The notes: a model not told the origin generated them from the letters alone. 64,000 bases of DNA from a bacterium (GCA_016699105.1 CP064960.1:1074715-1138714); one strand, 5' to 3'; counted from the first letter of the stretch, positions 25,957-46,069 are shown. Translations and numbers: made by a program.

Positions 25957-25989
25957 TTGCGCCAATGCGAAGTTAAGTGGCACCATATT

Positions 25990-27973: not shown

Positions 27974-28024
27974 ATTCTGAGTATAACATATCAGTCCACA
28001 CCAATTGGTGTGAATTATTATTTT

Positions 28025-28460
28025 GGTGCGCGAGAGAGGAGTGTGTCTCGGCAAAGCCTCGCCACGCTTCGCCGGATTACCGGCTCGCCCGAACTAGCTT
28101 TTCTATTGTGCCGGTTCGACCCGTTCGTTACATACCAAAGCAAAACTCCCCTGGCGGGGAGATTTGCTTTGGTGCGCGAGAGGAGTGTGTCTCGGCAAAG
28201 CCTCGCCACGCTTCGCCGGATTACCGGCTCGCCCGAACTAGCTTTTCTATTGTGCCGGTTCGACCCGTTCGTTACATACCAAAGCAAAACTCCCTGGCGG
28301 GGGAGGTTTGCTTTGGTGCGCGAGAGAAGAGTGTGTCTCGGCAAAGCCTCGCCACGCTTCGCCGGATTACCGGCTCGCCCGAACCAGCTTTTCTATTGTG
28401 TCGGTTCGACCCGTTCGTTACATACCAAAGCAAAACTCCCCTGGCGGGGAGGTTTGCTTT
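28025..28460. repeat. Tandem array of 3 units of ~145 bp, each a degenerate partial tRNA-Leu copy plus a terminator-like hairpin
   Basis: The units are 28025..28170, 28171..28314 and 28315..28460. Each begins (plus strand) with ggtgcgcgagagaggag, the reverse complement of the tRNA-Leu 3' acceptor/T-stem. Each contains the hairpin aaagcaaaactcccctggcggggagatttgcttt and a ggtat.cacg-like D-loop remnant. The units are more than 95% identical to each other. Confidence 0.8.
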
Positions 28461-28462
28461 AG

Positions 28463-28544
28463 TGCGCGAGAGAGGAGTCGAACCTCCACGCCTTGCGGCA
28501 CCTGCCCCTCAGACAGGCGTGTATACCATTTCACCACTCGCGCG
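28463..28544 (-). tRNA. tRNA-Leu (anticodon GAG), CCA not encoded
   Basis: The reverse complement folds as GCGCGAG-TG-GTGAAATGGTATACAC-G-CCTGT-CTGAGGG-GCAGG-TGCCGCAAGGCGT (long variable arm)-GGAGG-TTCGACT-CCTCT-CTCGCGC-A. Confidence 0.85.
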
Positions 28545-28600
28545 AATATGTAATTTTACCGGGTTATCGTACCATATGGACGCTTAAATTTAAACGGTCT

Positions 28601-28945
28601 TTATGATATGACCCAGGCAATGTAGAGGCAGCAGACACCCAGGAATAAGATGAGTGGCCACAAAAAGGCGACGTTAATGACATAATAGAGGTTACTGGGA
28701 GCGGTGAGGGCACCGGCTAGCCCTCGACGTTTGTGATAGGCTTTGAGGTACTCTTCCCAGATCTGCTTGCGATTTATTAGTACCAAGCACGAAGCTAATA
28801 CCGCAGTGGTGCCAAGTCCGGCTAGACCGAGTATGGGCTTGATTTGGACTACCACAGTAAACACGGTTAAAAGGAGGAGAAACAATGCGGGAGCAAACTG
28901 CGGTTCGGGCGATTTGTGATGAAGGAAGAGGCGTGATAAGACCAT
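28601..28945 (-). CDS. Small membrane protein
   Basis: 114 aa with 3 hydrophobic helices. Confidence 0.4.
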   Translation of the reverse strand: MVLSRLFLHHKSPEPQFAPALFLLLLTVFTVVVQIKPILGLAGLGTTAVLASCLVLINRKQIWEEYLKAYHKRRGLAGALTAPSNLYYVINVAFLWPLILFLGVCCLYIAWVIS

Positions 28946-28966
28946 GAGAATACCTTTCTTGTTTTA

Positions 28967-30588
28967 TTAGTGCAATGTTAGTTGATGATGATGGTGTCCG
29001 AATTGATAGTTGGAAAGTAAGAGTTTTTTTAACGATTCGAGAGTTGCGTGTGTTTTGTGGTCAGGGCTAAAAACGGTATATGGATCACAAATATCTTTTA
29101 CTTTGCCCATCAGATCAGCAAGCTCGTCACCATATATATCGGCTATTGCCCATCCATGCACCAATCCATCGCCCGCCGTACCACTAGGAGTACCGCCGAG
29201 TTTGGCGATTAGTTTAGTGTATTCCCGCATAAGAATAAGTAGCTTGTCGGTATCTTTCTTTTGGATAAATTTAAACGCGGTAAAAATTCAAATTGCCATC
29301 GCCAACATGACCCCAGATAGCTGCGGTTAGGTCGTGGCTACCCAATAGATGAGTGGTTTTAGTAAGCAATTCAGATAATTTTGCGGATGGAACCACTGCG
29401 CCTTCCATGAATGATATTGCCTGATTCGAACCCGGCGGTTCCAAATATTGAGCGGCGGCTGAGCGCAATTTCCACAGAGCTACCTGCTCCAGCGGATCAC
29501 GAGCAGTGCGAATCGTTGCGCCGTAGCGTTTGAGTATATTCTCGGCTCTCGTGGAGGCTACTCGTTGACCAAGCTGAGACATATTATCAAATTGGACCAG
29601 TAATGCCGTAGTAGGTTCATCGTTTGGCAATAATCCATCGAGAAATCCAGGATGACTTATAGAAACGGCTTCGAGAAGTCCCCTGTCAGCTAATTCGAGT
29701 GCAGACGGCTTGAGTTTCACAACACGACTGGCGGCCTCTAGCGCTTGTGCCGTTGCCGAGAAGTAACCGACTACTAATGTTGTACGTGGATTATACACAT
29801 ATGTGCTGAGAGTAATTTCTGTGATTATTCCGAGCGCACCTCCTGAACCGATAAAGAGCTGACCTAGATCAAACATATTACCGCGACGTACCCTTTTCAA
29901 GAGCGAAGCCCAAATTGTTGTAAGGCAATTTCGGAGTGGCGGCTCTGATCAACTCTTCATGATCGAGAAGTATATTGTCGATATCTCGATAGATTTGACC
30001 TTCAAGCGTGGTTAATCCTTTGCGGGCGCGTAGCTGTCGTGCTGTCAGTGGTTTGGTTTCGATAAGTGAGCCATCCGACAGTACTACTTTGAGTCCGCGT
30101 ACGTACTGACGGATCGATCCGTATTTAACTGCATGCAATCCTGGCGATTCTTCGGCAACGGCACCACCGATAGTGGTACCGTCAAGATTGAGCGGCAAGC
30201 ATGGAATGTGCCGTCCGTGAGACATGAGCGTTTGCTCAAGTGTCCGAAATGTGACACCTGACTGAACGGTGACTGTGCGTTTATCGAGTTTCAATATTTT
30301 GTTCATGTGAGCAGGTAGTACTATTTGGATTGCCGATGCAACTGCACCGCCACTTAGACCCATTCCGAGACCGCGAGCTATCACTGGAGTTGGATTAGTA
30401 GAAGAGATATGATCTGCCGCAAACTGAACCGTTTTACGAACATCAGCCGTATTTGCCGGGTACACGATTGCCATTGGTTCGGCAGTAACGATACTGTTAT
30501 CAGTAGCTAATTGGCGCAAAGCACCTGGCTGGTCGGTAGCCGCTCCGAGGAGGCGGGCTTGAAGCTCTCGCATGTAAGGCTTTCTCAT
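28967..30588 (-). pseudogene. FAD-linked oxidase (GlcD / D-lactate dehydrogenase-like), split into 3 ORFs
   Basis: 29878..30762 carries the FAD_binding_4-like domain (GLGMGLSGGAV...). 29271..29900 and 28967..29230 carry the C-terminal oxidase domain in two further frames. Confidence 0.65.
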
Positions 30589-30642
30589 ACTTCTATGATA
30601 CGGCGCGGCGCGGCGCCAATACAAGCCGCTTGTGCTACGATA

Positions 30643-31281
30643 ATGACTATGAATCAGCAGACAACATCCGCACTGGCAAATGCCCGGCAGAACGTAGAAG
30701 CTGATGCTTGCGATCAACGAGTAATGCCAGCATTTCGGACACGCTTGTTTGAGCCGCAACATTCAGTAGTTGGCGCTGTTCTCCTTTTGCCAGGTTACAC
30801 TTCACCGACGGATCAATTCGCTGATCTTGCTCAGATACTGGCGGATCGTGGCTACTATGCGTACATCCCACGTGCGCCGCGTCATGGAGTAGTTGACGGA
30901 CCACTAAGAATTGCGCCAACAGCCCCAGAGCTACAAGCGTATGCACGATCGGGTGCTGATATTGTTATGCGGCTATGTCCAGGTTCGAGTGGTGCGATTG
31001 GACTTAGTGGTGGAGCGGTTCTAGCTGCTTGGCTAACGGCTCAATCAGATATACAATTGAATCGACTTCTCCTTTTGAATCCATTTCTGGAACCGGCTCG
31101 TCGCCTCGTGCCGAAGTGGCGACTACATTTACTGCTTGCAATCTATGGTACACAGCGATGGCTGCCGGATAGACCCGATCCAACGCATGAGGCACGCACA
31201 TTTGCCGGACTCGCCAGCTACTTATTGCTTGCTCGATCGATCCCCGACAACTCTTACCTATACATATTGACGCCGCATTAA
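30643..31281 (+). CDS. Alpha/beta-hydrolase fold protein
   Basis: VLLLPGYTSP is followed by GLSGGAVLAAWL, a GxSxG-like nucleophile elbow. It is divergent from the oxidase gene. Confidence 0.5.
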   Translation: MTMNQQTTSALANARQNVEADACDQRVMPAFRTRLFEPQHSVVGAVLLLPGYTSPTDQFADLAQILADRGYYAYIPRAPRHGVVDGPLRIAPTAPELQAYARSGADIVMRLCPGSSGAIGLSGGAVLAAWLTAQSDIQLNRLLLLNPFLEPARRLVPKWRLHLLLAIYGTQRWLPDRPDPTHEARTFAGLASYLLLARSIPDNSYLYILTPH

Positions 31282-31440
31282 TAACTGCGCCTGGAGACGA
31301 TCAAGTTGATCTAGCTGTAGCGGCTCAGCGGTTTCAACAGTGGTTTCCTTCGGGTAGACACTATCAACTTCCTAGAGCTTGGAATCTTACTCATGATATC
31401 GCGGGGCGTTCAAGCCTAGAACCTTGGGCCGATACTGTCT

Positions 31441-32484
31441 ATGATGAATATGCTAATGTTTATTGTTGTCAATCAACAGGTTTTCAATTATGAAAAAATC
31501 CGACATTTCCTCAAGCCTAAACCCGTAAGATCTGGAATGACTGCAACATTTGTTATCACAGCTATGGTTAGCGGTGCTATCATCTACATGGCAACTCGTG
31601 CAGCTGATCAGTCTATTTCGGCTGAGGCAGAACTGGCTAGACTATCCGGAAGTGCCACCACAGTAAATGACGCCGGAGCCAGCGGAGGAAGAGCCGTTGT
31701 ATTCGGTAATCTTGCTACGCCACTACCAACTCCGACGCCAACACCAACACCGAGCACGTCAATTAGTCCACTACCATTTGGTTACGGGGCCGCCAACGGT
31801 CCAAATGGCACATGGAACCTCAAATTAAATGATAACTTCGACGGCAGTACTCTTGATACATCGATTTGGTCAACTGGTTGGCACGGATCAGGCATTACGC
31901 CCCCAAACCAGTCCCAAGAGCTAGCTTGCTATGACCCAAATCAAGTAGTGCTCGACAACGGTATCTTGCGCCTCAAGATTGACGTCAAGGCTACCAATTG
32001 TAATGGTACCCGGCCGTATATTTCAGGTGCTATTAATACCGAGAATAAGCGCGCCTATAGTTATGGGTACTTTGAGGCGCGCATCTGGTTGGACGCTAGT
32101 AGCAATGCCGTGTATAACTGGCCAGCCTGGTGGCTCAATGGTGACAGTTGGCCGACTACCGGCGAAGTAGATATCATGGAAGGATTAAGCGGTACAGCTC
32201 GCGCCAATTGGCATGGGCCTGAAGGCAATGGTGCTGGTTACGAGCTTGGAAATGGCGGAGTTATGGGCGGCTGGCATGTGTTTGCAGCTGAGTGGGCACC
32301 TGGTAAAATGGTGTCCTACTATGATGGTAAGTTGTTGGGATCATATTCGTCGAATAGTAATGTCACCTCGGCGCCGCAATACCTAATTCTTATGGCTCAG
32401 ATGAGCCCTCAAGATCGCTATGGTGGGCCAATCAAGGCACCAAGCGAAATGGATATTGATTATGTGCGAGTTTGGCAACGATAG
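31441..32484 (+). CDS. Secreted GH16-family glycoside hydrolase (beta-glucanase/laminarinase-like)
   Basis: The catalytic motif ExDxxE appears as GEVDIMEG. There is a signal-anchor and a PTPTPTPTPS linker. The probable start is near 31537 (MTATFVITAMV). Confidence 0.7.
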   Translation: MMNMLMFIVVNQQVFNYEKIRHFLKPKPVRSGMTATFVITAMVSGAIIYMATRAADQSISAEAELARLSGSATTVNDAGASGGRAVVFGNLATPLPTPTPTPTPSTSISPLPFGYGAANGPNGTWNLKLNDNFDGSTLDTSIWSTGWHGSGITPPNQSQELACYDPNQVVLDNGILRLKIDVKATNCNGTRPYISGAINTENKRAYSYGYFEARIWLDASSNAVYNWPAWWLNGDSWPTTGEVDIMEGLSGTARANWHGPEGNGAGYELGNGGVMGGWHVFAAEWAPGKMVSYYDGKLLGSYSSNSNVTSAPQYLILMAQMSPQDRYGGPIKAPSEMDIDYVRVWQR

Positions 32485-32514
32485 TTGACTGATGCCAGCC
32501 AGGGGTGCAGCTGA

Positions 32515-32600
32515 CCCAACCCTAACCCGCCTGGGCGCACGCAATACTCCCACCCGGGAATAACGTCATCAGGCGGGGTATTGGCATGGATTAAACCCAT
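32515..32600. repeat. ~86-bp dyad-containing element, copy 1 (copy 2 at 33808..33893)
   Basis: Copy 1 is cccaaccctaacccgcctgggcgcacgcaatactcccacccgggaataacgtcatcaggcggggtattggcatggattaaacccat and copy 2 is cccaaccctaaccccgcctggggcgcacgcaatactcccgcccgggaatacgtcatcaggcggggtatttgcgtgggttaacccat. An inverted repeat cccgcctgg/ccaggcggg brackets a cccggg core. Confidence 0.45.
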
Positions 32601-32948
32601 TTCGCTCAGAACCTAGCAATAATTATAATTTGGTGGTATAACCAGGCTATGGCGGTCCCATCCGGGCCGCTTGTTCCGATTCGTCCCAACAAAGGGGAAA
32701 CGCGTGACCGACGAGCGACCAACCTTAACAATCTCAACCATGACATCCGGACCCCATAAAGCCACCTACCTAGTAGCCACCAGCAACACCGAGCTATTTG
32801 ACCTATATGATCTGACAATGTCGGGGCTATGGGCGGAGCTTAATAAATACCCAGCTACTTGTGCGGCCGTCCGGTGTATTGAACTCTGCCGCGGTCGGGC
32901 GGAAATCAGCTGTGGCTTGAGTTTGATGCCGATGCCACCGAAGGCATT

Positions 32949-33776
32949 TTGGGTGACGCTGCGTCGGCGGTTCATCGCTGGGTCGATGACATAAAGCAAA
33001 GCCAGCTTCCGATCAAAGTTGTTCATGCCGACACGCCAGCAGCTGAACAGCTCAGCGGTTACTGGGTCATCACCTCATCCAGCCTGCTGCTTCGTCCAAG
33101 TGGCAGTGACGACAAACGCGGCTGGATTGAGCTCATCTATGTTGGGGCCGCCACGCAGCTGATCGAAGACCTGGTGATCCGGGCTGCCTGTGCAACCGGA
33201 ATGGTTCACACCGATCCTGACTCGGCGCCTCAGATCACGAATGGTGTGTTGGAGTATGGCCCCATCAGTCCGTATGCCATCGATCACGAAAGATTCGCTT
33301 TGCGTCTTCAAGCCGAGATCCGCACAACACTATCGTCGGGGTCGATCGTCGGCATCACCGTGGCTAGAGTAATCTGCCCGGTCGATACTGTCGACCAGAT
33401 CCCGCCGACCGTCACGCTGCTACATCAAGAGCAACGGGGCGATCACCGCGTGGTCGTGGGTGCTAACTTCCGGTTGACGGCCGGACTAAAACCAGATATG
33501 GCTTACAATCGTCCGGAGGCGCCCGGCATCTATCCACACAGCTGGCCGTATCTCGTCCAGCTCCTGTATCAGAAGATCTACGAAGCGGGCATATTCAATG
33601 TTGTTGAGCAGATTCGCGTCATCACAACTGAAACTGGTGCCGGTCAGCTCGTCTTCGTCGTCGATCCCTATGAACAGGATGGATATCAGGAAGCCTTAGG
33701 CCAGGCCGTTGCGCGAGCGGCCGTACTGTTCCTGGGTGACCGAGCCGTGGTCGATGTGGTAAGTCCGGTCTCATAA
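32949..33776 (+). CDS. Hypothetical protein (275 aa), possibly N-terminally extended by the frameshifted ORF 32671..32994
   Basis: The long ORF lies between the two copies of the dyad element. No recognisable domain was found. Confidence 0.4.
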   Translation: MGDAASAVHRWVDDIKQSQLPIKVVHADTPAAEQLSGYWVITSSSLLLRPSGSDDKRGWIELIYVGAATQLIEDLVIRAACATGMVHTDPDSAPQITNGVLEYGPISPYAIDHERFALRLQAEIRTTLSSGSIVGITVARVICPVDTVDQIPPTVTLLHQEQRGDHRVVVGANFRLTAGLKPDMAYNRPEAPGIYPHSWPYLVQLLYQKIYEAGIFNVVEQIRVITTETGAGQLVFVVDPYEQDGYQEALGQAVARAAVLFLGDRAVVDVVSPVS

Positions 33777-33899
33777 CGCTCCCACCCCCGCCGGACGTAC
33801 CCGCCAGCCCAACCCTAACCCCGCCTGGGGCGCACGCAATACTCCCGCCCGGGAATACGTCATCAGGCGGGGTATTTGCGTGGGTTAACCCATATCGCT

Positions 33900-36617
33900 A
33901 TGGCTCGGTTCAACGCGGTCTTGAACCAGCTGCTGCAGCCCAGCGAACTGGTTCTGTCTGCCGCCGAGAAAGCCTCACAGCACAGGCAGGCCTGGCAAAA
34001 GCAGTACCACTTCGAATATACGACAAAAATTTTATCAAGACCGCAAGATAAGTATGATAGTGTAAGACTTATGAGCGAGATGCCTGAGAATAATGAGCAG
34101 CAGATATTCGGCTCACTTGATCTGCAACCTGAGTTGTTAACTCACCATGTGCCACCTGAGACTGAGCCCTCAAACATTGCTCCGCAAGAAGCTATCACTC
34201 AGATAGACGCAGTCGGCCCTGATTCGGCCATTGACGCACACCAGCTCGTTGATTGGATAGTGGCGGCCGAGCATGCACCCGATTCGGACTTATCAATCCA
34301 GCTTGAGAAAATGCGATCCTGGCGTTCTCCCGGCGACCAATATCGCATCAACCAGCCGAATAAATTAGCGCTCGATGCTACTATCATTGGTTTGGTTGCA
34401 ACAAGGCATGCAAAACTCGCCGAGAAACTTATTTCATCGTCCCAGCAAGAACTCCAAAATTTGCGCTTTGCCACTAGTCTATACGCCGAGCGCAATGGAC
34501 TAGACGAGGCGGCCAAATTAGCGATCGAGAGAGAAATAAATTCAATTGTACAAAGAAACCGTACAGCATTACTCTCCAGAATGACTATCAGTTCTGCCCC
34601 CGAAGGTTTTGCTGCCGTTGTGGTCGATCGAGCGGCCAATCCTGATAGTGCCGGTGCGATCTCCGAAGCGCAATGGCAACTCATAGGCCAGCTTGGCTCT
34701 GAGGCGCAAGCTTCCCTTCTCGCGAGCAGCCGAATGGATCGGACAGCTTGCGGGATCCAAGACCTTGACACTCATGGCTTGCTCGGTGATATGCCGATTC
34801 TGATAGGCCGCATTGACCAACTTGATGATCGTGATCAAACCGAAGCTTATCTGACGGAATACGGGCAAGCCGTCGGCAAACTCGCCGAAATGCAGCAATC
34901 CGGCCAGGAGCTACGTCTGCCTATTATTAAGCGAGAACTAGCTCAGTTTGCGCAGCCGGATCAGGCATTGGCGGCCAGTGAAGCGATCTATGGCGATCTA
35001 CCGCTCGATGTTGCCACAAGCAAACTGGCCGACTTATTTCGTGATCCGGCTCATCAACAAGACCTGGTGCCGGTTGACCCTCAAATACTTGCACAACTAA
35101 CTATGGCTCGAGTTCGTTTTGACGATTTGGGTGTTTTGGATGATCTGCTTCCACCTCTTTTGGACCGCATTCGCGATTCTACAGATCAACCACAGTTGGT
35201 CGAGGATATACTGACGGCAGTGGCGGCGGCACAAGCGCTCAAGGGTGAGCGACTGTTATACTTGGATCCAGTTATCCAGACAGATCACCCCGCAGAATTG
35301 GCAGCTAGTCTAGCCAAAGTCACGGGTTTGGCCGAGCCAATGAATGATCCAACCCGCGCCGAGCTCCTTCGAGCTATTACCGATGCCCCCTCTGCTCCGC
35401 AAGCCGTAGATATGCTTCAGTCTTGCAGCCAAGCTCTAGCGTCGCGGAGCCTAAAATTTGATAGTGAGTCCGATATTACGATATCTGACATGCTGCGACA
35501 ACTCTCCCCAGTAGCCGAACAGGTGTCCGAGGCTGACCCGCAAGTGCGAGCCGACCGTTTGTCGCAAGCTGCCGAGCGAATTGCTAGTAACTACCTCGTA
35601 GCGCGGGAGATTACTGATATTTACAACAAGAATTATGGTGAAGCAATATCTCTCGCAAAGGGCAGGCGAGCCGTGTTGTCCGATTGTCCAGAAATCGCCC
35701 GCCGAATGGCAGATATTGGGTGCAGTGGAGACGATGCTAATCGAATGTTTTCGACCTGGTCGTATCACAGTGAATATGCAATGGCATCATATGCCCGTGC
35801 GCAACGAGGCGAGGGTAAGGTTACACTTAATATGCTACCCGCGTTAGTAAACCTACAGCGCCAGCATATCGAAAAAAATCTGCGGAGTTATGAGGACTAC
35901 GTAGCTCGGTTTGGATCCGAAGAGGCACGCGAGATTATGACAATGTTCAAGATTACCAACTTTGAGCATGTGGGAGTAGATTTACTACATGACCAATTGG
36001 AACGATGGCGCTCCGGCGAACGGCCAGTTGAAAATCTTATGATTGTTTCTCGTGCCGACTGGAACGGAGCGAACTCCAACGCCGGACAAGATACGCAGGA
36101 GGTTTTCAAAGACACAAACTTTTTTGTTTTTGAAGCGGGTAGTGCCCGAGATCTCGACGACATTCGCCGCGCGGTTAAGGATCGCGAATTAAGTCATGGT
36201 CGAGTTCCCAAAGAGGAGAATGCAGTGAAAAATGTTGTGATCCACGCGCATGCCAATCCAGATGGTATTCTCTTGGGGTTAGATGGAGAAGCCATTAATG
36301 TCGGTCAGTATCTTAAGTTGCAAAAGCTTCCAAACGCCCGTGCTCGCACGTACGAAGAGGAGCTCGGCTCTGCCTACCGCATTATTATCCAGGCATGTAG
36401 TACGAAAGGTGAAAATACTAGTCGTTTCCTGATTGGTGCAGACGGTAGACTCGTCCCAGGTCCAAATATTGCAGCTACAATCCATGAATATCACCAACGC
36501 ACCGTTGAGTCATCGCCTGTACCCACCGTAGGTAATATCGTCACAGACGAGAATGATAAGGTTTGGTTCGGCATCGCGGGAGGCTACTTAGAAAGCACGC
36601 CCTACGAAAAGGTGTAA
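33900..36617 (+). CDS. Large (~905 aa) protein with alpha-helical N-terminal region and predicted C-terminal caspase-like (clan CD, CHAT/C14-like) His-Cys peptidase domain
   Basis: Three C-terminal strands match the caspase-hemoglobinase fold: NLMIVSRADW (first strand plus Arg), NVVIHAHANPDGILLGLDG (His strand) and YRIIIQACSTKGE (QAC-type Cys strand). Their spacing is about 70 and 48 aa. No P-loop was found. The likely start is ATG 33900, immediately after dyad-element copy 2. Confidence 0.55.
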   Translation: MARFNAVLNQLLQPSELVLSAAEKASQHRQAWQKQYHFEYTTKILSRPQDKYDSVRLMSEMPENNEQQIFGSLDLQPELLTHHVPPETEPSNIAPQEAITQIDAVGPDSAIDAHQLVDWIVAAEHAPDSDLSIQLEKMRSWRSPGDQYRINQPNKLALDATIIGLVATRHAKLAEKLISSSQQELQNLRFATSLYAERNGLDEAAKLAIEREINSIVQRNRTALLSRMTISSAPEGFAAVVVDRAANPDSAGAISEAQWQLIGQLGSEAQASLLASSRMDRTACGIQDLDTHGLLGDMPILIGRIDQLDDRDQTEAYLTEYGQAVGKLAEMQQSGQELRLPIIKRELAQFAQPDQALAASEAIYGDLPLDVATSKLADLFRDPAHQQDLVPVDPQILAQLTMARVRFDDLGVLDDLLPPLLDRIRDSTDQPQLVEDILTAVAAAQALKGERLLYLDPVIQTDHPAELAASLAKVTGLAEPMNDPTRAELLRAITDAPSAPQAVDMLQSCSQALASRSLKFDSESDITISDMLRQLSPVAEQVSEADPQVRADRLSQAAERIASNYLVAREITDIYNKNYGEAISLAKGRRAVLSDCPEIARRMADIGCSGDDANRMFSTWSYHSEYAMASYARAQRGEGKVTLNMLPALVNLQRQHIEKNLRSYEDYVARFGSEEAREIMTMFKITNFEHVGVDLLHDQLERWRSGERPVENLMIVSRADWNGANSNAGQDTQEVFKDTNFFVFEAGSARDLDDIRRAVKDRELSHGRVPKEENAVKNVVIHAHANPDGILLGLDGEAINVGQYLKLQKLPNARARTYEEELGSAYRIIIQACSTKGENTSRFLIGADGRLVPGPNIAATIHEYHQRTVESSPVPTVGNIVTDENDKVWFGIAGGYLESTPYEKV

Positions 36618-36761
36618 ATCTTTCGTTTGAACGGTGTACCTAAAACACAAACGCCCGTTCGCTGCTGGTATCTGAACCCTCAATAGTTGAAACGATTTTG
36701 AGAGTGTGGACAGCACCGTTTTTGGCAGCCGGAACCTTGAGATTGGCTTCAAATTGTCCGG

Positions 36762-38347: not shown

Positions 38348-38468
38348 ACATAGCCTTATGCTTATTTACATACAAGTATACATGTGGGTTGCGTTTGAAG
38401 GAAGTATTGAGCTTATGTTTCAGGATAACTCCCCTATCAGTCTCAGCAAATAATGGGCAAATCAACTT

Positions 38469-38933: not shown

Positions 38934-39221
38934 AATCTGTTGTTTCCTATCTTTACCAAATATTCTACCAAAAATGACCCTAGCGCAATAATCCCAGAGT
39001 CAATGTCAGAATCTATACTCACCTGGAGATGATGGCTGCAACATCGTGAATAAAAAATACGCCTGCACTCATTTGAGACGCCAAAACTAGAGCTACTAAC
39101 CTATTGCCCATGCAACATTTGCACAATAATTTGAATTGTGAAGACGCCTCAATCGTCGTGCTGCATACTCAAAACGAGATACCGCAGGTTCATACATTTG
39201 AACAATGATGTACACTACGAT

Positions 39222-40316
39222 TCATTCGCCACCGAGTCGCGTATCAGTTGCTCGTGCTAATAAGGTGATCTCATTTCGGGCAGTATCACTAACGTCTCGG
39301 GCAAAAAACAATCGATTAACGAATGGTATCCGAGTTCCGCTCCCTAGCCGCCGAGCTTTCTCCTGTTTTGTGAGTCTTAGCAACTCGAGGGCATCATCGA
39401 GTACGTCGCCGCGGCCGTTCATGCCGTGTGGTGTATTTACTACCATAATAGCATCAACATCTTCGGGCGCTTGAATGCTGGCGAGAATACGCTTTGGTGA
39501 GAGCATTATGTCGTCGGTACCTATGAGTATTCCAACGCCAGGAGCAGCTTCACGCTGTCGCAACTCGTGAAGTAGTGGACTTTGCTTCGAGCTACCGACT
39601 GAATAGATCACTGACCCGCCCATTGGGGTTTTGGTTGCTCTGGATTCTCGGGCAGCCCGCAACCTACTCAGACGATCTTCAAAACTATATTCTTTTCGGT
39701 TTGCCCGGTGCTCGCGTCGCAAACGGGTCAACGCCTCTTCCGCCACCACCCTGGCAATGAGCCCTTTATCTGTCATGTCCGGTGCCTCACCAAGGACGGG
39801 ATAAGCCAAGACTAGGTCTGCGAATAGATCTGGCCGTTGGTGTGCGGCAAGTATTCCCATTAAAGTATCTGCGGATTGGAAAATTGCATCGATCCTGCCT
39901 ATGCCCGCAGAATCTAATGTTTCTATCAGTAATTCTGCTCGCTTCTGCTGATAGTGTGCGACGCTTAGTTCAATTTCAGGCCGATGAGCAACAGCTAGGG
40001 TTTCTTTCCTAGATGCCTGCCTTGTTTCGCCATTTTCGGTGACGGAGAATCCGGGGTCAACCTCCCCCGGCAATGGATCTCTCAATGGCGGCAAAACATT
40101 ATGCCCTCTTGCACTTATTTCGCTCAAAGTGAATAGGTTCCGATTTGCGTCGTACCCCAATCCTCCGGCAAAAAATATTGGAGGTCCATCCCTACTGGTT
40201 TGCTCAACGCCAGTATCGGCATTCAATTCCTCACCAGCTGCACTTAACTCTTCGGCTAGACCCCTTCCGCTGAACTGTGCATTTTCTGGTGGATTATCTG
40301 GAGGAATTTCTGTCAT
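39222..40316 (-). CDS. Hypothetical protein, possibly an alpha/beta-hydrolase-like fold
   Basis: 364 aa with IFFAGGLG, AIFQSADTLMG and VVNTPHGMNG blocks loosely reminiscent of a Ser/Asp/His hydrolase. The call is weak. Confidence 0.4.
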   Translation of the reverse strand: MTEIPPDNPPENAQFSGRGLAEELSAAGEELNADTGVEQTSRDGPPIFFAGGLGYDANRNLFTLSEISARGHNVLPPLRDPLPGEVDPGFSVTENGETRQASRKETLAVAHRPEIELSVAHYQQKRAELLIETLDSAGIGRIDAIFQSADTLMGILAAHQRPDLFADLVLAYPVLGEAPDMTDKGLIARVVAEEALTRLRREHRANRKEYSFEDRLSRLRAARESRATKTPMGGSVIYSVGSSKQSPLLHELRQREAAPGVGILIGTDDIMLSPKRILASIQAPEDVDAIMVVNTPHGMNGRGDVLDDALELLRLTKQEKARRLGSGTRIPFVNRLFFARDVSDTARNEITLLARATDTRLGGE

Positions 40317-40361
40317 GGTTTAATTATACATCGGTGTAGATGCCTGTAATGAGTTTACAAT

Positions 40362-40493
40362 AGCCGAGTATTTTGGGGTAATCTTCGATAAGGTTCCAAC
40401 CTATCAAGAAATAGTGGATTGAACCAAAAATACCAGCCTTGTACCGGATATAAATCAGATATTTCAGCTGGCATTCTTGCCAAATAATTCATT
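40362..40493. repeat. ~132-bp element-end repeat, copy A (copy B at 44635..44766), abutting a tRNA-Leu 3'-fragment-like motif
   Basis: agccgagtattttggggtaat.ttcgataaggttccaacct...ccagccttgtacc.gatataaatcagatatttcagctggcattcttgccaaataattcatt is about 93% identical at the two sites. Confidence 0.7.
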
Positions 40494-40535
40494 GGTGCGC
40501 GAATGCGCCGTTAGGTGGAACCAAATTGAAGCTAG
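40494..40535. repeat. att-like motif family 2 (ggtgcgcgaRtgcgMcgttagNtggaaccaMattga), copy at the 3' end of the toxin gene
   Basis: Other copies lie at 41194..41233 and 42269..42310. Degenerate copies lie at 25957..25996 and ~42990..43030. The motif shares tcgcgcacc with the tRNA-Leu 3' end. Confidence 0.6.
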
Positions 40536-40802
40536 CTAATATACCTGATTATGCGATCCTACATCTAGAAACTCGTAGTGGTCTTCGGTCTCCCGATACA
40601 CAACTCTTAGATCGCCGCCAATTGAAAAAGCGCGCAATCCCCTCTTTGTCCCAACAAGTGGATGATCGTCCAGCGGGTAATCGCGTACGCCCTCTGTAAA
40701 TAATTGTAGCCGGGTCTGGAACTGTTTCTTGAGTTTGGGGTTCGTGGAAATGCGACTTTTGAAATTCTTTTCGAACTTACGGTGACGGCGTATAGGCTTC
40801 AT
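40536..40802 (-). CDS. RelE/YafQ-family type II toxin (mRNA interferase)
   Basis: 88 aa. ...DYPLDDHPLVGTKRGLRAFSIGGDLRVVYRETEDHYEFLDVGSHNQVY is a typical RelE/YafQ C-terminus. It sits 3 bp downstream of the antitoxin. Confidence 0.7.
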   Translation of the reverse strand: MKPIRRHRKFEKNFKSRISTNPKLKKQFQTRLQLFTEGVRDYPLDDHPLVGTKRGLRAFSIGGDLRVVYRETEDHYEFLDVGSHNQVY

Positions 40803-40804
40803 AC

Positions 40805-41083
40805 CTATAAGTCATTCATGAAGTCTTCAACGGAGCTAAATTCTTTGATCTTGCCTGACTTTTTTTCCGCATCAAGATCGGCGATCATTTGCTCATAACG
40901 AGCATTGGCTTCTGGGCTTAAAACAACAGCCTTGCCGTCAAAGTCGAGCTTTCGACCGTCTGCCTCGGCTTTTGCCCACACGCGGATATAGGCCTGGGCA
41001 GAATCAAAACCGAGGCTGCGTGCACGGCGCTCTAGGCCATCGCGAACATCTTGATCAATAGGGATTTGTAACTTGGTATTCAT
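40805..41083 (-). CDS. RelB/DinJ-like antitoxin
   Basis: 92 aa, encoded upstream of the toxin. A direct repeat aaatggtat x2 and a tataaat box lie in 41095..41135. Confidence 0.6.
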   Translation of the reverse strand: MNTKLQIPIDQDVRDGLERRARSLGFDSAQAYIRVWAKAEADGRKLDFDGKAVVLSPEANARYEQMIADLDAEKKSGKIKEFSSVEDFMNDL

Positions 41084-41277
41084 AGTACTTAAATGGTATC
41101 AAAATGGTATATAAATGTCAAAAGATAGACAATCTACAACGAAGACAAAGAGACGAACCAATTTGGCCGTCTTCTTATCTGTAAATTATTCCTGGTGCGC
41201 GAGTGCGACGTTAGATGGAACCACATTGAGACGTGCATTCTGCTGATGTATCAAAAACTAGAAGCTCTTGGCTTCAC

Positions 41278-42000
41278 TTATCGAGACGGTGAGATTTGGC
41301 CGCCCCGAACTACGATGCCACGGCCGCTGAAAAACTTCTTAAATTCGTTAAAGTTCACAGCTGCGTATTCTTGGGTCTCTTTTGAAATACCAGATGGATT
41401 GTGTAGATAGAATTCTTGTTTGGGCTTATCGTAACCCACCATAAGCACAAGATGCCCGCCTTTCGTCTTGGGCTTACTGTCTGGATATCGAATCCACGGG
41501 CTAACTCCAGCGATCACAAAGTTGCCTTTGCTGAGTTCATGAGTAAGTTCCTGTAAGGTGATACCCTGAACAACTCTCGCTTTCCATCCAAGCTCTTTTT
41601 CAACGTACGAAATGTAGGGCTTGTAGTAGAGACCCGCCGAATTTTCTAGTGGCATAACGTATCCACCGTACTCGGTGCATTTTGTGCCGAGCTCAACAAG
41701 CGGCACGATCTTGCCGGTGCGGTACGCTAGAATCATCTTTGTGCAGGCCATGCCGCAGGCGCTCCAGCTCCAGTCGTGGTACTCCTTTTTAGTCTTCGCT
41801 CCTGACTTCTTCCAATTTGGGTCGTCGTCGGTACTGATTTTCTTCTCAAGAATCGATTTCGCTAGTTCGCGCGATTCCCATTGGCAAAAATATGGCACGT
41901 CTTCATAAACAAATCGATCGGGCGCGGGGAGAGGCCGTATAAAATACTTAACTCGTTTAGCGTGATGAAGTAGGTGGTTTTTTATGTTTCTCATCTGCAC
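41278..42000 (-). CDS. Peptidase C39-like (papain-fold cysteine peptidase) domain protein
   Basis: The Cys block WSACGMACTKMIL, the His block GGHLVLMVGYD and FYLHNPSG are present. Confidence 0.6.
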   Translation of the reverse strand: MQMRNIKNHLLHHAKRVKYFIRPLPAPDRFVYEDVPYFCQWESRELAKSILEKKISTDDDPNWKKSGAKTKKEYHDWSWSACGMACTKMILAYRTGKIVPLVELGTKCTEYGGYVMPLENSAGLYYKPYISYVEKELGWKARVVQGITLQELTHELSKGNFVIAGVSPWIRYPDSKPKTKGGHLVLMVGYDKPKQEFYLHNPSGISKETQEYAAVNFNEFKKFFSGRGIVVRGGQISPSR

Positions 42001-42123
42001 TCAGAATACCAGATTTAGCCGGAAAGGACTTGAACACGCATCAACAGATTACGATTACAAAAAGAAAAGTTCCAGAAATAGATTCTGGAACTTTTCTATC
42101 TGGAATATTTTGAATAATATCCT

Positions 42124-42268
42124 GGTGCGCGAGAGAGGAGGGTGGCTCAGCAAGCTTCGCCACGCTTCGCCGGATTACCGGTTCGCCCGAACCCGCATAT
42201 TTTCTGCGTCGGTTCGACTCGTTCGTTACATACCAAAGCAAAACTCCCCTGGTGGGGAGATTTGCTTT
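42124..42268. repeat. Dispersed copy of the ~145-bp tRNA-Leu-derived repeat unit
   Basis: It begins ggtgcgcgagagaggag and ends with the hairpin aaagcaaaactcccctggtggggagatttgcttt. Further copies are at 42891..43030 (truncated), 44767..44915 (plus a partial copy at 44916..44931) and 45825..45984 (divergent, adjacent to tRNA-Leu CAG). Confidence 0.75.
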
Positions 42269-42306
42269 GGTGCGCGAGTGCGACGTTAGCTGGAACTAAA
42301 TTGAGG

Positions 42307-42840
42307 CTAGTTTTGCGCCCGTCCGTTCATGAGGAATTCATAGGTAGCGTCGCAACGGAGTTTCTGAGCGCTAACCTGTCCCTCAACGAAGGCCGGATCG
42401 GTGCGGATATCAATTTGGATGGGGTCGCGATCGGTATATTCAATGAGTAGGCGAGCGGGGTCATAGTTCCAGGTTACTTTCTCAATCGTACAGTACCCGA
42501 ATGCGGCGATGATATCGTCGTTGCGGGCATTGCGTTGAATATTACTCTGTAGGAAGAAAGCAGCCGAGATGGAGCCGAAAGTTAGGGTTAACCAAAAGAG
42601 GCCAAGATAGACATTAAGAATTCTAGGGTGCGTCTTTAGCCACCGCCCCAATAGTATGCTTAGCGCGAGAAAGGTAATGGCGCCAATTAAATATGCTAGT
42701 GCAGCTACCACGCTCAGGCCGCTGTCGGTACCCGTGACCGTGATTGTCGTATATATGGTTAATCCGACAAGCACAATTGTAATGGCGGTCAGAAACCAAA
42801 TATAAACTTTCCAGCTTTGGAGAAACCGCATGATAACCAT
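42307..42840 (-). CDS. Integral membrane protein (4 TM)
   Basis: 177 aa with 4 hydrophobic helices. Confidence 0.45.
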   Translation of the reverse strand: MVIMRFLQSWKVYIWFLTAITIVLVGLTIYTTITVTGTDSGLSVVAALAYLIGAITFLALSILLGRWLKTHPRILNVYLGLFWLTLTFGSISAAFFLQSNIQRNARNDDIIAAFGYCTIEKVTWNYDPARLLIEYTDRDPIQIDIRTDPAFVEGQVSAQKLRCDATYEFLMNGRAQN

Positions 42841-43018
42841 AGGATTATTCTAGCGCATATAATCAAATTATCCCCGGCGGATTAGGCCTTGGTGCGCGAG
42901 AGAGGAGGGCGTCTTGGCATAGCTTCGCCACGCTTCGCGCGATTACGCGCTCGCCCGAACCCGCATATCTTCTGCGTCGGTTCGACTCCACCACTTTTGC
43001 CTACCAATGCTACATTAG

Positions 43019-43426
43019 GTGGAGCCACATTATTCTTTTATAGTTAATATCATAGCCTATGAGATGCATCTGACGAGGTATAATTCGACTATGGATCAGA
43101 CTGCTCCACCTACTTTATGCGAATCAAAAGCTGAGACGCCGAAGCAAGTCGTAAGCTTAGGCACTATAGCAGACTATCTAGTTAGCTACACACAAAAGTA
43201 CAGACAAGAATACGCTAGGCTAATCGAGGCACCCCCGAAAGGGGCTGGCTTCCCTGATATCGTTAAATCACCTTATCTTGAGCGCAGCAATGTAGCATTG
43301 TATGTGGCACGTGATGGTGCTGTCTTATTGGACGCTTCAGAGCCGGAATACGATTGGTATATAGCGGGTGGACCGGCGTTTATGGTAGATTACCCCGACC
43401 TAATTCGCGTGTGCCAGAGAGTATAA
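43019..43426 (+). CDS. Hypothetical protein
   Basis: 135-aa ORF immediately upstream of the DUF4263-like gene. Confidence 0.35.
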   Translation: MEPHYSFIVNIIAYEMHLTRYNSTMDQTAPPTLCESKAETPKQVVSLGTIADYLVSYTQKYRQEYARLIEAPPKGAGFPDIVKSPYLERSNVALYVARDGAVLLDASEPEYDWYIAGGPAFMVDYPDLIRVCQRV

Positions 43427-43546
43427 AATCCATCTTGCGCTCTGCGGGAATATTGGAAAACCAATTGGGATATATCGATTGGTATTTCCGCCGGAGAAAA
43501 TTCAAATGGTAATTGGTTAACAGATTTTCCGGCTGCTGTAGACCAA

Positions 43547-44518
43547 TTGTCGGTCTCAGTCCCTGACGGACCACAATTTAAGATCTTGAAGTTAGATGTG
43601 CCGTGGAATGAGCTGATTTCTCAACTAACCTTCGGCGCTTACGGCCCAATTCTTGATGTGCATTTGCCCTCTACCTCGAATATCAACTTCTGGCAGCCGA
43701 TGATCGTAAGAAAGCTGGGTTTTCTTACGGCCGATCGTGAGCATCGGAGATTTTTGCAGTATGCCGAATTTATTCGTCATACTGAGGACGCTGCATGGGA
43801 TAAAAGGGGTATTTGGGCTCGATCGAAGCTTGACGTTCAAAGAGACCTTGCAAATGCAATTGCAATGTCAGAAAAAGATGGGGCTACGATGTCATTCGGC
43901 GAAAATCAACATGATGTACTCATCCAAATTAGGGATCGACTTGCTCGCCTAGAGACAGCCGTAAAGGGGCTTGAGGAGCTGCTACTAAAGGACCCCGGGG
44001 ACGATGAACGGCTCTACCAGAAGTTTCTTGAAGATAATCCATTACTGATAGATATATATGGCGAGGTAATACCTAGGCCACGGCTTGTATATCCGAGAGA
44101 TACGTCACCCTTAGGTAAGACATATATTGAGCCCGATTTCATAGTGCGTAGACCAGGGAATCGGTATCGCTTAATTGAAATTGAACGCCCTTCAAAGAAG
44201 ATGGCCACAAAAGCCGGGCAAGCGCGTGCCGAGACAACGCAAGCTTCATTTCAAATCTCGGAGTTTAAGGATTTTATTAAAGAGCACCACGATGTTATCA
44301 AGGATAGATTTCCGGGAATCCATCGGGCGACAACAAGTACTATCATTATCAGTCGAGCTACTGAAGAGAGTTTTGGTGGTAGGTCCAATATAAGAAGGCA
44401 GCTCTTGCTTCTCGAGAGCCAACTGGGAGTAGAAGAGCTTCTGACGTATGATGATCTATTATCTCAGGCCAAAGTTGCATTACAACAACTTGCTGGTATC
44501 ACACCAGATGTTAGCTAG
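43547..44518 (+). CDS. Shedu/DUF4263-like PD-(D/E)xK-fold nuclease candidate
   Basis: The C-terminal block ERLYQKFLEDNPLLIDIYGEVIPRPRLVYPRDTSPLGKTYIEPDFIVRRPGNRYRLIEIERPS resembles the DUF4263 pattern (FLe.nPwLl ... PDF.l ... vvElKrp). The canonical Lys is replaced (EIER), so activity is uncertain. Confidence 0.4.
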   Translation: MSVSVPDGPQFKILKLDVPWNELISQLTFGAYGPILDVHLPSTSNINFWQPMIVRKLGFLTADREHRRFLQYAEFIRHTEDAAWDKRGIWARSKLDVQRDLANAIAMSEKDGATMSFGENQHDVLIQIRDRLARLETAVKGLEELLLKDPGDDERLYQKFLEDNPLLIDIYGEVIPRPRLVYPRDTSPLGKTYIEPDFIVRRPGNRYRLIEIERPSKKMATKAGQARAETTQASFQISEFKDFIKEHHDVIKDRFPGIHRATTSTIIISRATEESFGGRSNIRRQLLLLESQLGVEELLTYDDLLSQAKVALQQLAGITPDVS

Positions 44519-45108
44519 ACTGGCCTGAATGATCGTCATGGGTCAAGAATCCACCGGGGAATATTGACGATCTAGGGCCTTCTGGTGGAACAACAGTCAG
44601 ATTGACTACTCCGTACCTGTAACCCACTAACTAAAGCCGAGTATTTTGGGGTAATTTTCGATAAGGTTCCAACCTACCAAGAAATAGTTGATGGAACCAA
44701 AAATACCAGCCTTGTACCCGATATAAATCAGATATTTCAGCTGGCATTCTTGCCAAATAATTCATTGGTGCGCGAGAGAGGAGTGTGTCTCGGCATAGCC
44801 TCACCACGCTTCGCATGATTACATGCTCGCCCGAACCAGCTTTTTTATTATTGTGTCGGTTCGACTCGTTCGTTACCTACCAAAGCAAAACTCCCCTGGC
44901 GGGGAGGTTTGCTTTGGTGCGCGAAGTGACCTCAATTTGGAACACATTACAACCTCAATTGGTTGCTCTGGATAGTAAGCTAGGAGGATTTGGGCTTCAA
45001 ATCATTGAAGGGAAGACTACCTATCCTGAAGCATCAAACGAATTTGAGGACTCGGGGTAGGCCCGGCCCCGCGTCAGAATCAACACGGGAGCCGGGGCGG
45101 ACATGAGG

Positions 45109-45606
45109 TCAGGCAGCGGCGCCGTTGGTGTATGTCGTCCGGGCGTCGCCCCATCCATCTCCGGAGTACACGCCTTCGAGGGCGCCCATCGCCTGGAGTA
45201 GGATCATCGCGACCTTGAGGCGCAGGATAGCCACCTCGTCGTGATGATGATCAGCCAGAACGCTCTCGATGGTCCACACTTGCGTGTAGTCAGCCCAGCG
45301 GAGCCAATCTGGCATTGCGCAAAGCACTCGCCCGAGGGCGGCCGGCGCGAGCCGCCCAGCCCGATCGAGTGCGACTTCAGCAGCTTTGCTGTCGCGACCA
45401 CGATTGGTCGCCAGCTCACAGGGCTCGAAAGCCCAACGCGACTGAATACCGCCGGCGATCTCGAGAAGATGCCGAATATCTGCTTCCTCGCTCATGGAAG
45501 TGTCCCTCTCTAGAGCGTTGGCCTGGAACCTGATTTCCTGGGCCGGATTACCACCACTGTGCTTCAGTAGCAATAAGCCGGCCAGGACTCTCATATCAAA
45601 ATTCAA
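45109..45606 (-). CDS. Hypothetical protein in a GC-rich (~60% GC) segment
   Basis: The 165-aa ORF has markedly higher GC than its flanks. It is bounded by repeat copies at 44767..44931 and 45825..45984. Confidence 0.4.
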   Translation of the reverse strand: MNFDMRVLAGLLLLKHSGGNPAQEIRFQANALERDTSMSEEADIRHLLEIAGGIQSRWAFEPCELATNRGRDSKAAEVALDRAGRLAPAALGRVLCAMPDWLRWADYTQVWTIESVLADHHHDEVAILRLKVAMILLQAMGALEGVYSGDGWGDARTTYTNGAAA

Positions 45607-45984
45607 CCTTTACGATTGAATGATGACTATTTTAGCATAAGTAGTACGTTTTGTCAAATATTGTGCTCAAACGAGCGCCTGCAGTGCATCGATTTTCATA
45701 GCCCAAAAGAGGAGTCGAACCCATGATTTTGCATAAGCCAAGCCATAATAAGCAAAACGGCCCCAAGATAAAGTATTATCTGGAACCGTTTTGTGGCTTG
45801 AGGGAGCCATATAATAACTTGGTGCGCGAGAGAGGAGTGAGGCTAAAGCCTCCTCCCTGCGGTGCTCGCAAAATAGCCGAGCAAGCTCGGCTATTTTGCT
45901 GCGCTCCTCGTCTACCGAACCTACGGTTCTCCCCTTTTTCTCCTACCATAGTAAAAACCCGACCTCGTGTCGGGTTTTTACTAT

Positions 45985-46069
45985 GGTGCGCGAGAGAGGA
46001 GTCGAACCTCCACACCGTTGCCGGCACTAGAACCTGAATCTAGCGTGTCTACCATTCCACCACTCGCGC
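45985..46069 (-). tRNA. tRNA-Leu (anticodon CAG), CCA encoded
   Basis: The reverse complement folds as GCGCGAG-TG-GTGGAATGGTAGACAC-G-CTAGA-TTCAGGT-TCTAG-TGCCGGCAACGGTGT-GGAGG-TTCGACT-CCTCT-CTCGCGC-A-CCA. A terminator hairpin aaaaacccgacacgaggtcgggttttt follows. Confidence 0.85.

Follow-up and report, generated by a model that had tools for sequence, protein, structure and literature searches.

Strain-variable cassettes of defence and toxin genes in a Saccharibacteria genome are joined at copies of a tRNA-Leu 3' end

The 64,000-nucleotide stretch of bacterial DNA analysed here (GCA_016699105.1, CP064960.1:1074715-1138714, hereafter the window, with positions counted from its first letter) carries a tandem array of nine segments, which in the sense of the minus strand runs from 45983, downstream of tRNA-Leu(CAG), to about 32.5 kb. 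Segments 1-8 each close with a copy of the tRNA 3' end; these copies are the joints at which small cassettes with defence and toxin genes, varying between strains, are strung together. The array was probably built by accretion as in the staphylococcal cassette chromosome mec (SCCmec), through large serine recombinases (LSRs) of a family that is spread across the Patescibacteria, that targets tRNA 3' ends and whose local copies have since decayed. The genome belongs to the Saccharibacteria, in the candidate phyla radiation (CPR); the closest named matches of the peptide-binding-protein gene at 46107-47864 are from Candidatus Saccharimonadia.

Counted from the tRNA, the segments follow in the order A7, E2, A6, E4, E5, A4, E7, E8 and E9, and most are 0.6-1.9-kb cassettes without a recombinase of their own. 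In tRNA sense each repeat copy is the 3' terminus of a unit closing in ...CGCGCACCA. Two kinds of unit are found: seven units of type A (approximately 145-165 nt), with a terminator hairpin (missing in A5), a body with hairpins P1-P3 and the 18-nt core CTCCTCTCTCGCGCACCA, and four sites of type B (approximately 29-44 nt, at 40493, 41193, 42268 and 44915). Alignment of the copies gives an 18-nt core at the A units (16 nt in A2, owing to a 2-nt deletion) and a 10-nt core at the B sites. The features of the array, followed by the second run of A units behind tRNA-Leu(GAG), are:

45984-46069, minus strand: tRNA-Leu(CAG), detected by ARAGORN and Rfam, adjoining the peptide-binding-protein gene in all relatives
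45984-46001, minus strand: core C0, the last 18 nt of tRNA-Leu(CAG), CTCCTCTCTCGCGCACCA
45820-45983, minus strand: unit A7, with terminator hairpin, structured body and 18-nt core C1 (45820-45837)
44915-45819, minus strand: cassette E2, with a foreign tRNA 3' fragment (45701-45745), a promoter-like site (45657-45629) and a 161-aa open reading frame (ORF; 45109-45594)
44915-44943, minus strand: site B4 with core C2, closing E2
44766-44914, minus strand: unit A6, with hairpin, body carrying the P2 variant GCATG-TAAT-CATGC, and core C3 (44766-44783)
44561-44765, plus strand: remnant of an LSR gene, its last ~75 codons, running into core C3
43019-44518, plus strand: Shedu defence gene SduA in two ORFs (43019-43426 and 43547-44518), which with the preceding remnant makes up segment E4
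42890-43035, minus strand: unit A5, closing E4, with a body carrying the P2 variant GCGCG-TAAT-CGCGC but without terminator hairpin, and core C4 (42890-42907)
42268-42889, minus strand: cassette E5, with a 177-aa membrane-like ORF (42307-42840), then B3
42268-42296, minus strand: site B3 with core C5
42123-42267, minus strand: unit A4, with hairpin, body and core C6 (42123-42140)
41193-42122, minus strand: cassette E7, with a tRNA-type trailer with terminator hairpin (42063-42097) and a C39-like peptidase ORF (41278-42000)
41193-41221, minus strand: site B2 with core C7, closing E7
40493-41192, minus strand: cassette E8, with a promoter-like site, an antitoxin (40805-41083) and a YafQ/ParE toxin (40536-40802)
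40493-40521, minus strand: site B1 with core C8, closing E8
40336-40492, plus strand: remnant of an LSR gene, its last ~55 codons, running into core C8 and counted with segment E9
32500-40335: segment E9, ~8 kb, with ORFs of 364, 154 and 218 aa and a VWA gene
28462-28543, minus strand: tRNA-Leu(GAG), detected by ARAGORN
28314-28461, 28170-28313 and 28024-28169, minus strand: units A3, A2 and A1, in tandem and 93-97% identical

What distinguishes closely related strains is the presence of entire cassettes and the count of A units, and the junctions lie in the core. In L004, a contig of 4.4 kb that stems from a different sample and encodes a binding protein with 99% identity, the CCA of tRNA-Leu(CAG) runs straight into the start of E2, so that A7 is absent; further on, the core of B4 joins the start of E8 directly, at the right side of C7, and the ~3.7 kb between 41203 and 44914 of the window are missing. 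The same B4/E8 junction, likewise without 41203-44914, is present in L070, a 24.5-kb contig that is ~99% identical. Behind tRNA-Leu(GAG), one A unit is found in L070, L071 and L072 versus three in the window, and a collapse of the repeats in these contigs is unlikely, as they were assembled with k-mers of 127-141 and the copies are 93-97% alike. Every breakpoint is contained in the 10-18 nt that the sequences share. How similar L004 is to the window changes along the contig in a mosaic fashion (flank 95.6%, E2 99.7%, E8 92% identity), with E2 99.7-100% identical in L004 and L070. In the relative L008, a homologous toxin-antitoxin cassette with a B1-like site lies directly behind tRNA-Leu(CAG), and the first ~100 nt of E7 are ~80% identical to the sequence behind that same tRNA. 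The original prediction, made from the sequence alone, had proposed to look for empty sites in related genomes; near-identical strains indeed carry or lack cassettes at the cores.

The repeats themselves are far more frequent than expected. The 17-mer yields 8 matches at up to two mismatches versus 0.03 expected, and the 9-mer CGCGCACCA yields 12 exact matches versus 0.84 expected, all on the minus strand and all within 28024-45992. Most copies stand where they had been predicted (28025, 28315, 42124, 42891, 44767, both tRNAs, and shorter variants at 40494, 41194, 42269 and 44916), except that the copy listed at 45825 begins at 45821 and that at 28171, though present, carries the 2-nt deletion of A2. 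Both tRNA-Leu genes do lie on the minus strand with identical sequence from the T-stem through the discriminator, whereas the announced 12 or more fragments come down to 10 copies outside tRNAs plus the two tRNAs.

It had also been stated that no recombinase is present. No intact gene is found in the window, but two 3' remnants of LSR genes adjoin cores, and they account for the reported duplicated element of ~132 bp, which comprises 40343-40502 (copy 1) and 44616-44775 (copy 2) at 92% identity. The translated stubs read ...LLRTCNPLTKAEYFGVIFDKVPTYQEIVDGT...SLVRERG, and tblastn with the homologue P0121 matches them with E=1e-21 (44561-44765) and 8e-16 (40336-40492), with no further fragment and no catalytic domain in the window. 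At the nucleotide level, the stub at 44561-44765 matches a recombinase gene of L070 at its 3' end with 88.5% identity. There, as in L071, the CCA of tRNA-Val directly abuts a convergent, apparently full-length gene of 575 aa with a precomputed Resolvase (PF00239) match, the last ~15 codons of which are the antisense of tRNA-Val; this gene is missing at tRNA-Val in L072 and in the window. With an apparently full-length homologue at a tRNA in sister strains, the predicted integration mechanism is right in outline, the recombinase being of the large serine class and not a tyrosine integrase as is usual for tRNA sites.

Homologues are widespread in Saccharibacteria and other Patescibacteria, and in six of the seven contexts fetched from Patescibacteria the recombinase ORF runs into a tRNA 3' end. 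These contexts are tRNA-Val (apparently full-length in L070/L071, a remnant in L009), tRNA-Leu(TAG) in L076, tRNA-Lys in L078 and tRNA-Glu in L080 and L077; in L077 a second, shorter remnant abuts tRNA-Glu, while a 393-aa copy sits at an internal junction. The peptide GxEP, encoded by the antisense of the T-loop, is present in 33 of 120 homologue tails, and the other two reading frames are seen in others. Gene callers prolong many of the recombinase ORFs (P0121-P0240) into the antisense of the neighbouring tRNA, giving spurious tails such as ...GLEPP and ...RRIELRLPG, and many of these entries are N-terminally truncated or lie at contig ends.

The domain and fold matches indicate that the family is one of large serine recombinases, with a recombinase domain, a zinc-ribbon domain and a coiled coil. 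PF07508 and PF13408 match P0174 and P0192, and the only significant PDB matches of an AlphaFold 2 model of P0174 (mean predicted local distance difference test score, pLDDT, 79) are complexes of serine integrases with attachment (att) site DNA (E 1e-12 to 8e-8; the top matches are 9y66, 9dxh and the Bxb1 structure 9iu2). The family is ~25% identical to phage LSRs and distant from characterised ones; PDB searches with the recombinase sequence gave coiled-coil noise only, and a scan of viral contigs with the recombinase alignment gave no match. Full-text literature searches found no paper that ties serine recombinases of Saccharibacteria or Patescibacteria to tRNA integration, which is weak evidence of novelty.

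The B sites suggest how such a recombinase would recognise its target. All four contain the motif GTTCCA-N20-CCA, which recurs in L080, where it stands at the degenerate distal repeat of an element of 10.7 kb lying at tRNA-Glu, at the end of the toxin-antitoxin cassette directly behind tRNA-Leu(CAG) in L008, and at the internal attP-like junction of L077, which consists of P arm, core and recombinase end and whose right side is equal to the sequence behind tRNA-Glu. Five matches are found in the window versus 0.53 in shuffled sequences, namely the four B sites and an unrelated one at 22047. The B sites have only TCGCGCACCA in common with the tRNA, and by sequence comparison the arm-linked core in L077 and L080 matches the tRNA in the last ~6 nt only. 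Measured from the CCA end, the T-loop GTTCGA is at 18 nt and GTTCCA at 23 nt, an offset of 5 nt; in serine integrases, the outer motif bound by the zinc-ribbon domain is 5 bp nearer to the centre in attB than in attP (PMC3783163). The body of a B site thus looks like an element-side P arm joined to the core, the T-loop would be the matching part of the B arm, and the crossover can be placed within the last ~4-8 nt of the tRNA because of this 5-bp arm shift and the minimal shared sequence (...CACCA). Such an arrangement would explain how one family could use many tRNAs. No convincing motif for a right-hand half-site was found.

The junctions in the array fall into four types. Those in which the tRNA or an A unit is followed by a terminator are attB-like, the one at C8 (B arm, then recombinase end) is attP-like, the one at C3 (A6, then recombinase end) is attL-like, and those at C2 and C5 (B arm, then terminator) are attR-like. 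All four B sites come after minus-strand ORFs; B1 and B3 begin at the stop codon, B2 some 40 nt and B4 some 150 nt further downstream. Ahead of E2, E8 and E9 there are promoter-like sites, and terminators stand behind the cores.

In the reconstruction that I favour, elements would insert at the extreme 3' end of a tRNA, with the recombinase gene converging on the tRNA and reading into it, and successive insertions beside earlier ones would leave cassettes with a single gene or a toxin-antitoxin pair, each composed of a trailer or terminator, in most cases a detectable promoter-like site, and a closing B site. Both recombinase genes of the array would then have decayed to their 3' stubs, which would leave the array immobile, or mobile only through a recombinase from elsewhere. 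Tandem insertion combined with recombinase loss would reproduce the four junction types as well as the tandem pair in L077. In one possible parse, A7, A6 and A4 were a tandem run of A units, each of which was later hit by cassettes, mirroring the unoccupied A3-A2 run after tRNA-Leu(GAG); alternatively, strains may swap cassettes by homologous recombination. The contig L077, from an unrelated member of the Patescibacteria, is an independent example of tandem accretion: two tandem elements with recombinase remnants (6171-8884 and 12056-14886) lie at its tRNA-Glu, each with an ABC/FtsX transporter pair. The serial integration into tRNA-Leu, with duplication of the att core and decay, that had been predicted is upheld by the presence and absence of cassettes at the cores and by the recombinase remnants, and falls short at the A units, which it does not explain.

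If this reconstruction is true, a single recombinase family would account for the turnover of defence and toxin genes between strains at tRNA loci across the group, in Saccharibacteria and other CPR bacteria whose genomes are tiny and whose gene gain is poorly understood. Serine integrases, which are usually tied to protein-gene targets, would have colonised the classic tRNA niche by using the invariant T-loop as part of the site, and the recombinases, being compact and having short, predictable sites (any tRNA 3' end), would become available as possible tools for engineering hosts that are hard to manipulate.

Several observations weigh against it. A scan of ~50 large ORFs of the window found no recombinase domain, and no intact recombinase is present there. 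The far end of an intact element was not recovered, as contigs break at the recombinase genes: the homologues in L076 and L078 lie at contig ends, and those in L077 and L080 are truncated. The attP-like junctions at C8 and in L077 are chromosomal. Segment E9 has no distal core, even in a relaxed search for a degenerate one, and the stretch at 19.2-28.0 kb described below has neither a recombinase nor a distal core. B1-B3 are mutually homologous, so that about four independent sites underlie the GTTCCA motif. The only pairing that canonical LSRs accept is attP with attB, and not attP with attL or attR; tandem accretion therefore needs a relaxed pairing of attP with attL or attR, of the kind reported for CcrAB. 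The differences between strains could stem from homologous recombination or transformation through flanking cassettes. Finally, the A units have no GTTCCA and are not explained by the model, and no consistent parse into attL and attR was found that accommodates them.

The A units are indeed of a different nature. In hairpins P2 and P3, changes on one side are matched by changes on the other so that pairing is kept, three pairs being doubly changed; P2 occurs as GCCGG/CCGGC, GCGCG/CGCGC, GCATG/CATGC and, in L010, GCCTG/CAGGC. In a sample of 7 sequences, of which ~4 are independent, 95.9% of cells are paired versus 21-35% when the partner is slid, and none of 500 shuffles matches the observed covariation score. 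A7 is more distant than the other units, and its homologue, with compensatory changes, stands at the same place in L001. A type-A covariance model recovers the units of L001 (E=1e-6) and A7 (E=6e-4), and no unit in the distant recombinase loci. The units are conserved in relatives at only 60-80% protein identity. Their hairpin resembles the native terminator of tRNA-Leu(GAG) in L009, their left part resembles an antisense tRNA 3' end, most clearly in L001 and L010, and a similar unit with a degenerate Val end follows tRNA-Val. At gathering thresholds Rfam detects only tRNAs, and at E<=10 nothing credible matches an A unit. A scan of genome contigs for the type-A motif gave 50 chance matches and none that is real, and two scans of metagenome contigs for relatives gave 0 matches and 9 chance matches. 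I also considered the A bodies as tRNA pseudogenes and rejected this, as neither Infernal nor ARAGORN detects them.

A1-A3, A4, A6 and A7 are copies of a structured module and not decayed islands, and serial integration fails to explain them. Tentatively, I regard the A units as extra copies of the tRNA end that serve as secondary insertion sites, although they could also stem from unequal crossing-over or act as RNA or single-stranded-DNA structures. A more speculative idea, which I consider rather unlikely, is that they are conserved structured landing pads, arranged in tandem and each with an extra copy of the tRNA-Leu 3' end behind the terminator of the tRNA, which the recombinase family loads with cassettes in place of the tRNA itself. 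The recombinase would read the universal T-loop as an attB half-site and load small, promoter-bearing defence and toxin cassettes, and if so, CPR bacteria would possess a tRNA-anchored, integron-like platform for gene capture.

Alternatively, the location of the repeats may require no site-specific recombination at all, if the tRNA 3' end and its trailer were duplicated by slippage or unequal crossing-over, in the manner of the 178-bp repeats behind tyrT of Escherichia coli, the copies spread, and cassettes were gained and lost by homologous recombination between them. For the tandem A units alone this stands at somewhat less than an even chance: three tandem units, one versus three copies between strains and the loss of A7 between 18-nt repeats are all as it predicts, and the hairpin shared with the native terminator of tRNA-Leu(GAG) in L009 fits as well. 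As an account of the whole array I find it improbable, since the B sites share just 10 nt with the tRNA and yet junctions 3.7 kb apart hit there in two strains, recombinase stubs lie at cores, and in other lineages the GTTCCA arm stands at its fixed spacing beside a different tRNA end (Glu).

The units might instead work as RNA, being tRNA-like 3' modules, terminator included, that share a transcript with the cassettes or the tRNA and function in 3' processing, stability or CCA-related roles, comparable to the t-elements of plant mitochondria or rtT RNA of E. coli. The compensatory changes in P2 and P3, the persistence of a homologous unit in relatives at 60-80% protein identity, and B sites that start at or near stop codons with terminator hairpins behind them are in line with this. 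I nevertheless hold it to be quite improbable, as searches found neither an Rfam family nor a tRNA-like score, even with thresholds relaxed, the A bodies sit downstream of an intrinsic terminator, the covariation comes from few independent sequences, and the recombinase stubs and the cassette polymorphism would be left unexplained. An RNA function could, though, coexist with accretion by the serine recombinase.

Direct repeats of 10-18 nt from a tRNA 3' end are also the textbook signature of tRNA islands moved by tyrosine integrases of the P4/lambda type, with an integrase that has been lost or lies at another place in the genome. Actinobacteria are the hosts of cultured Saccharibacteria, and the high-GC actinophage contig L006 has the same tRNA-Leu 3' end beside an integrase-like gene. 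In this IMG/VR contig the match is a 27-nt tRNA-Leu 3' fragment (1232-1258, 26/27 identical), next to a gene of integrase type as judged by eye only; it may merely reflect the conservation of the tRNA. A scan of viral contigs for the 18-nt core turned up nothing beyond two tRNA arrays of phages and one att site of an actinophage. A tyrosine integrase is very unlikely here, as no scanned ORF of the window has a Phage_integrase domain, and the sole recombinase remnants at the cores are of the serine class, from a family that abuts the tRNA 3' end in 6/7 contexts. That the repeats are an artefact of a repeated or collapsed tRNA cluster in the assembly can be dismissed almost entirely, in spite of the many 1-nt homopolymer deletions in the window that are typical of long-read assemblies, because contigs assembled independently from short reads of other samples (L004, L070-L072) have the same sites and junction types, and substitutions and indels set the copies apart from one another.

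Among the closest known systems are SCCmec and other SCC elements (CcrAB), which accretion by the serine recombinase resembles in its logic. In both, a serine recombinase inserts at the 3' end of a conserved gene, tandem arrays with short direct repeats arise, many members of an array have no recombinase of their own, and the cargo is accessory or defence-like. The target of SCC is rlmH, however, whereas here it is the tRNA 3' end and its copies; the recombinase is related only at the level of the superfamily and its gene converges on the target, the cassettes, at 0.6-1.9 kb, are much smaller, and the host is a CPR bacterium. The array works like SCC composite islands, and like tandem tRNA islands, but is not a member of the SCC family, having neither an rlmH target nor a Ccr-type recombinase.

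Tyrosine-integrase islands at tRNA genes, such as P4-like elements and the pipolins at tRNA-Leu (PMC11551731), also insert at the 3' end of a tRNA gene, which is regenerated, have direct repeats of that end as borders, and occupy sites that are hotspots for defence genes and bear scars of tRNA fragments, which are known to remain at tRNA-gene islands (PMC9897764). They differ from the present array, in which the recombinase is of the serine class, the shared core is down to 6-10 nt, the arm motif is offset 5 bp from the T-loop and the cassettes hold single genes. Integrons, and clusters of attC sites lacking integron integrases (CALINs), likewise have co-oriented single-gene cassettes, each closed by a recombination site, with toxin-antitoxin or defence cargo, and the present array is without a recombinase as CALINs are; in contrast to them it has no IntI, its sites contain the tRNA 3' end, and E2, E8 and E9 have promoter-like sites of their own. 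Integron attC sites were considered and rejected, as a search of the cassette strand at 40.3-46.1 kb for attC pairs of the form RYYYAAC-N40-130-GTTRRRY gave 0 matches and the scanned ORFs contain no tyrosine recombinase domain.

In Escherichia coli, 178-bp tandem repeats (rtT RNA) follow tyrT, and they close with the 3' end of that tRNA, CCA included. The A units are similar in being tandem units of ~150-180 bp directly behind a tRNA, each ending in its 3' end including CCA, and dissimilar in that they are also dispersed among cassettes, stand beside recombinase stubs and contain a segment like an antisense tRNA end. The Rfam search gave no match to rtT, or to anything beyond tRNAs, although the presence of rtT among the release-15 families searched was not confirmed; the likeness is limited to the layout. 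The system is best filed as new in the sense of cassette accretion by a serine recombinase at tRNA 3' ends in CPR bacteria, while tRNA-linked islands as such are already known.

The extent of the variable DNA departs from the single 17.5-kb island between the two tRNA-Leu genes that had been proposed. ARAGORN and Rfam together give three tRNAs, tRNA-Val(TAC), tRNA-Leu(GAG) and tRNA-Leu(CAG), all on the minus strand, and comparison with relatives shows that variable DNA lies downstream of each tRNA-Leu, from 45983 to ~32.5 kb and from 28461 to 19172. The array of tRNA-Leu(CAG) comprises only ~45.98 to 32.5 kb, the 28.6-32.5-kb part of the proposed island is core that is syntenic in relatives, and the second variable stretch falls outside that island. 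The features concerned are:

28601-32484: conserved core, not island, with a 114-aa ORF, an FAD-linked oxidase that is split in the window, a hydrolase-like gene of 283 aa, and GH16
19172-28023: second variable stretch, from unit A1 to tRNA-Val, with LexA-like, ECF sigma, RadC, SulP and MGMT genes (Pfam)
19095-19171, minus strand: tRNA-Val(TAC), detected by ARAGORN and Rfam
18960-19171, minus strand: tRNA-Val region; behind the tRNA gene come a terminator hairpin, a body like that of A7 and a degenerate copy of the Val 3' end, CTCATTCCCCACTA (~19002-19015)

The 28.6-32.5-kb part is assigned to the core because its gene order is conserved in L009 and L001. In L001 (80% protein identity), GH16, hydrolase, FAD oxidase and 114-aa ORF are kept in identical order, and the FAD oxidase and 114-aa ORF are also present in L009 (60% protein identity), where the binding protein is followed by tRNA-Leu(CAG), two small genes, FAD oxidase, 114-aa ORF, tRNA-Leu(GAG) and tRNA-Val; these orders represent the ancestral one. 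The core genes are unbroken in L070-L075. The ~9-kb block at 19172-28023 is kept in the sister strains, while its flanking tRNAs adjoin in L009 with a gap of 39 nt. A possible tiny recombinase remnant at ~18960-19000 was assigned by eye only.

The expectation of defence-like and toxin genes among the cargo was confirmed by the YafQ/ParE toxin and by SduA, the two ORFs of which match positions 4-84 (E=8e-26) and 144-455 (E=6e-101) of the PADLOC profile PDLC00404, together with Pfam SduA_C. Segment E9 appears, from its distribution among relatives, to be the oldest and a lineage-specific one; the gene content at its position differs in L001, L008 and L009, and it is present in L070 apart from 33887-36640. 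This 2.75-kb strain-specific insert, in place of which L070 has 66 nt, begins where a direct repeat of ~65 bp (32533-32597 and 33828-33891) has its second copy, and carries a 913-aa ORF without a Pfam or PADLOC match. The 218-aa ORF of E9 (37691-38347) has a weak PADLOC match to PD-T4-6 (E=4e-6) in its C-terminal part only.

Relative to L070 the window has 27 indels, about half of which are 1-nt deletions in A, T or G homopolymer runs and most of the remainder other changes of 1-2 nt (for example at 29262, 29286, 31498, 26463 and 19780). They break the FAD oxidase, VWA and SulP genes, genes of 313 aa and 474 aa, and probably SduA. Genome decay was rejected as the cause of the split genes, since these indels are 1-nt homopolymer deletions relative to the sister strains, and they look like long-read assembly errors rather than pseudogenisation. 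The 3' end of tRNA-Leu(GAG) (28460-28462) reads CTA in the window versus CCA in L070-L075, either a true substitution or a sequencing error. Lastly, cassettes contain 3' fragments of other tRNAs, such as GGGTTCGACTCCTCTTTTGGGCTA, at 45701-45745 and ~42010-42040 of the window and at 8290-8320 of L008; the two halves of their T-stems are mismatched, as if they had been fused within the T-loop.

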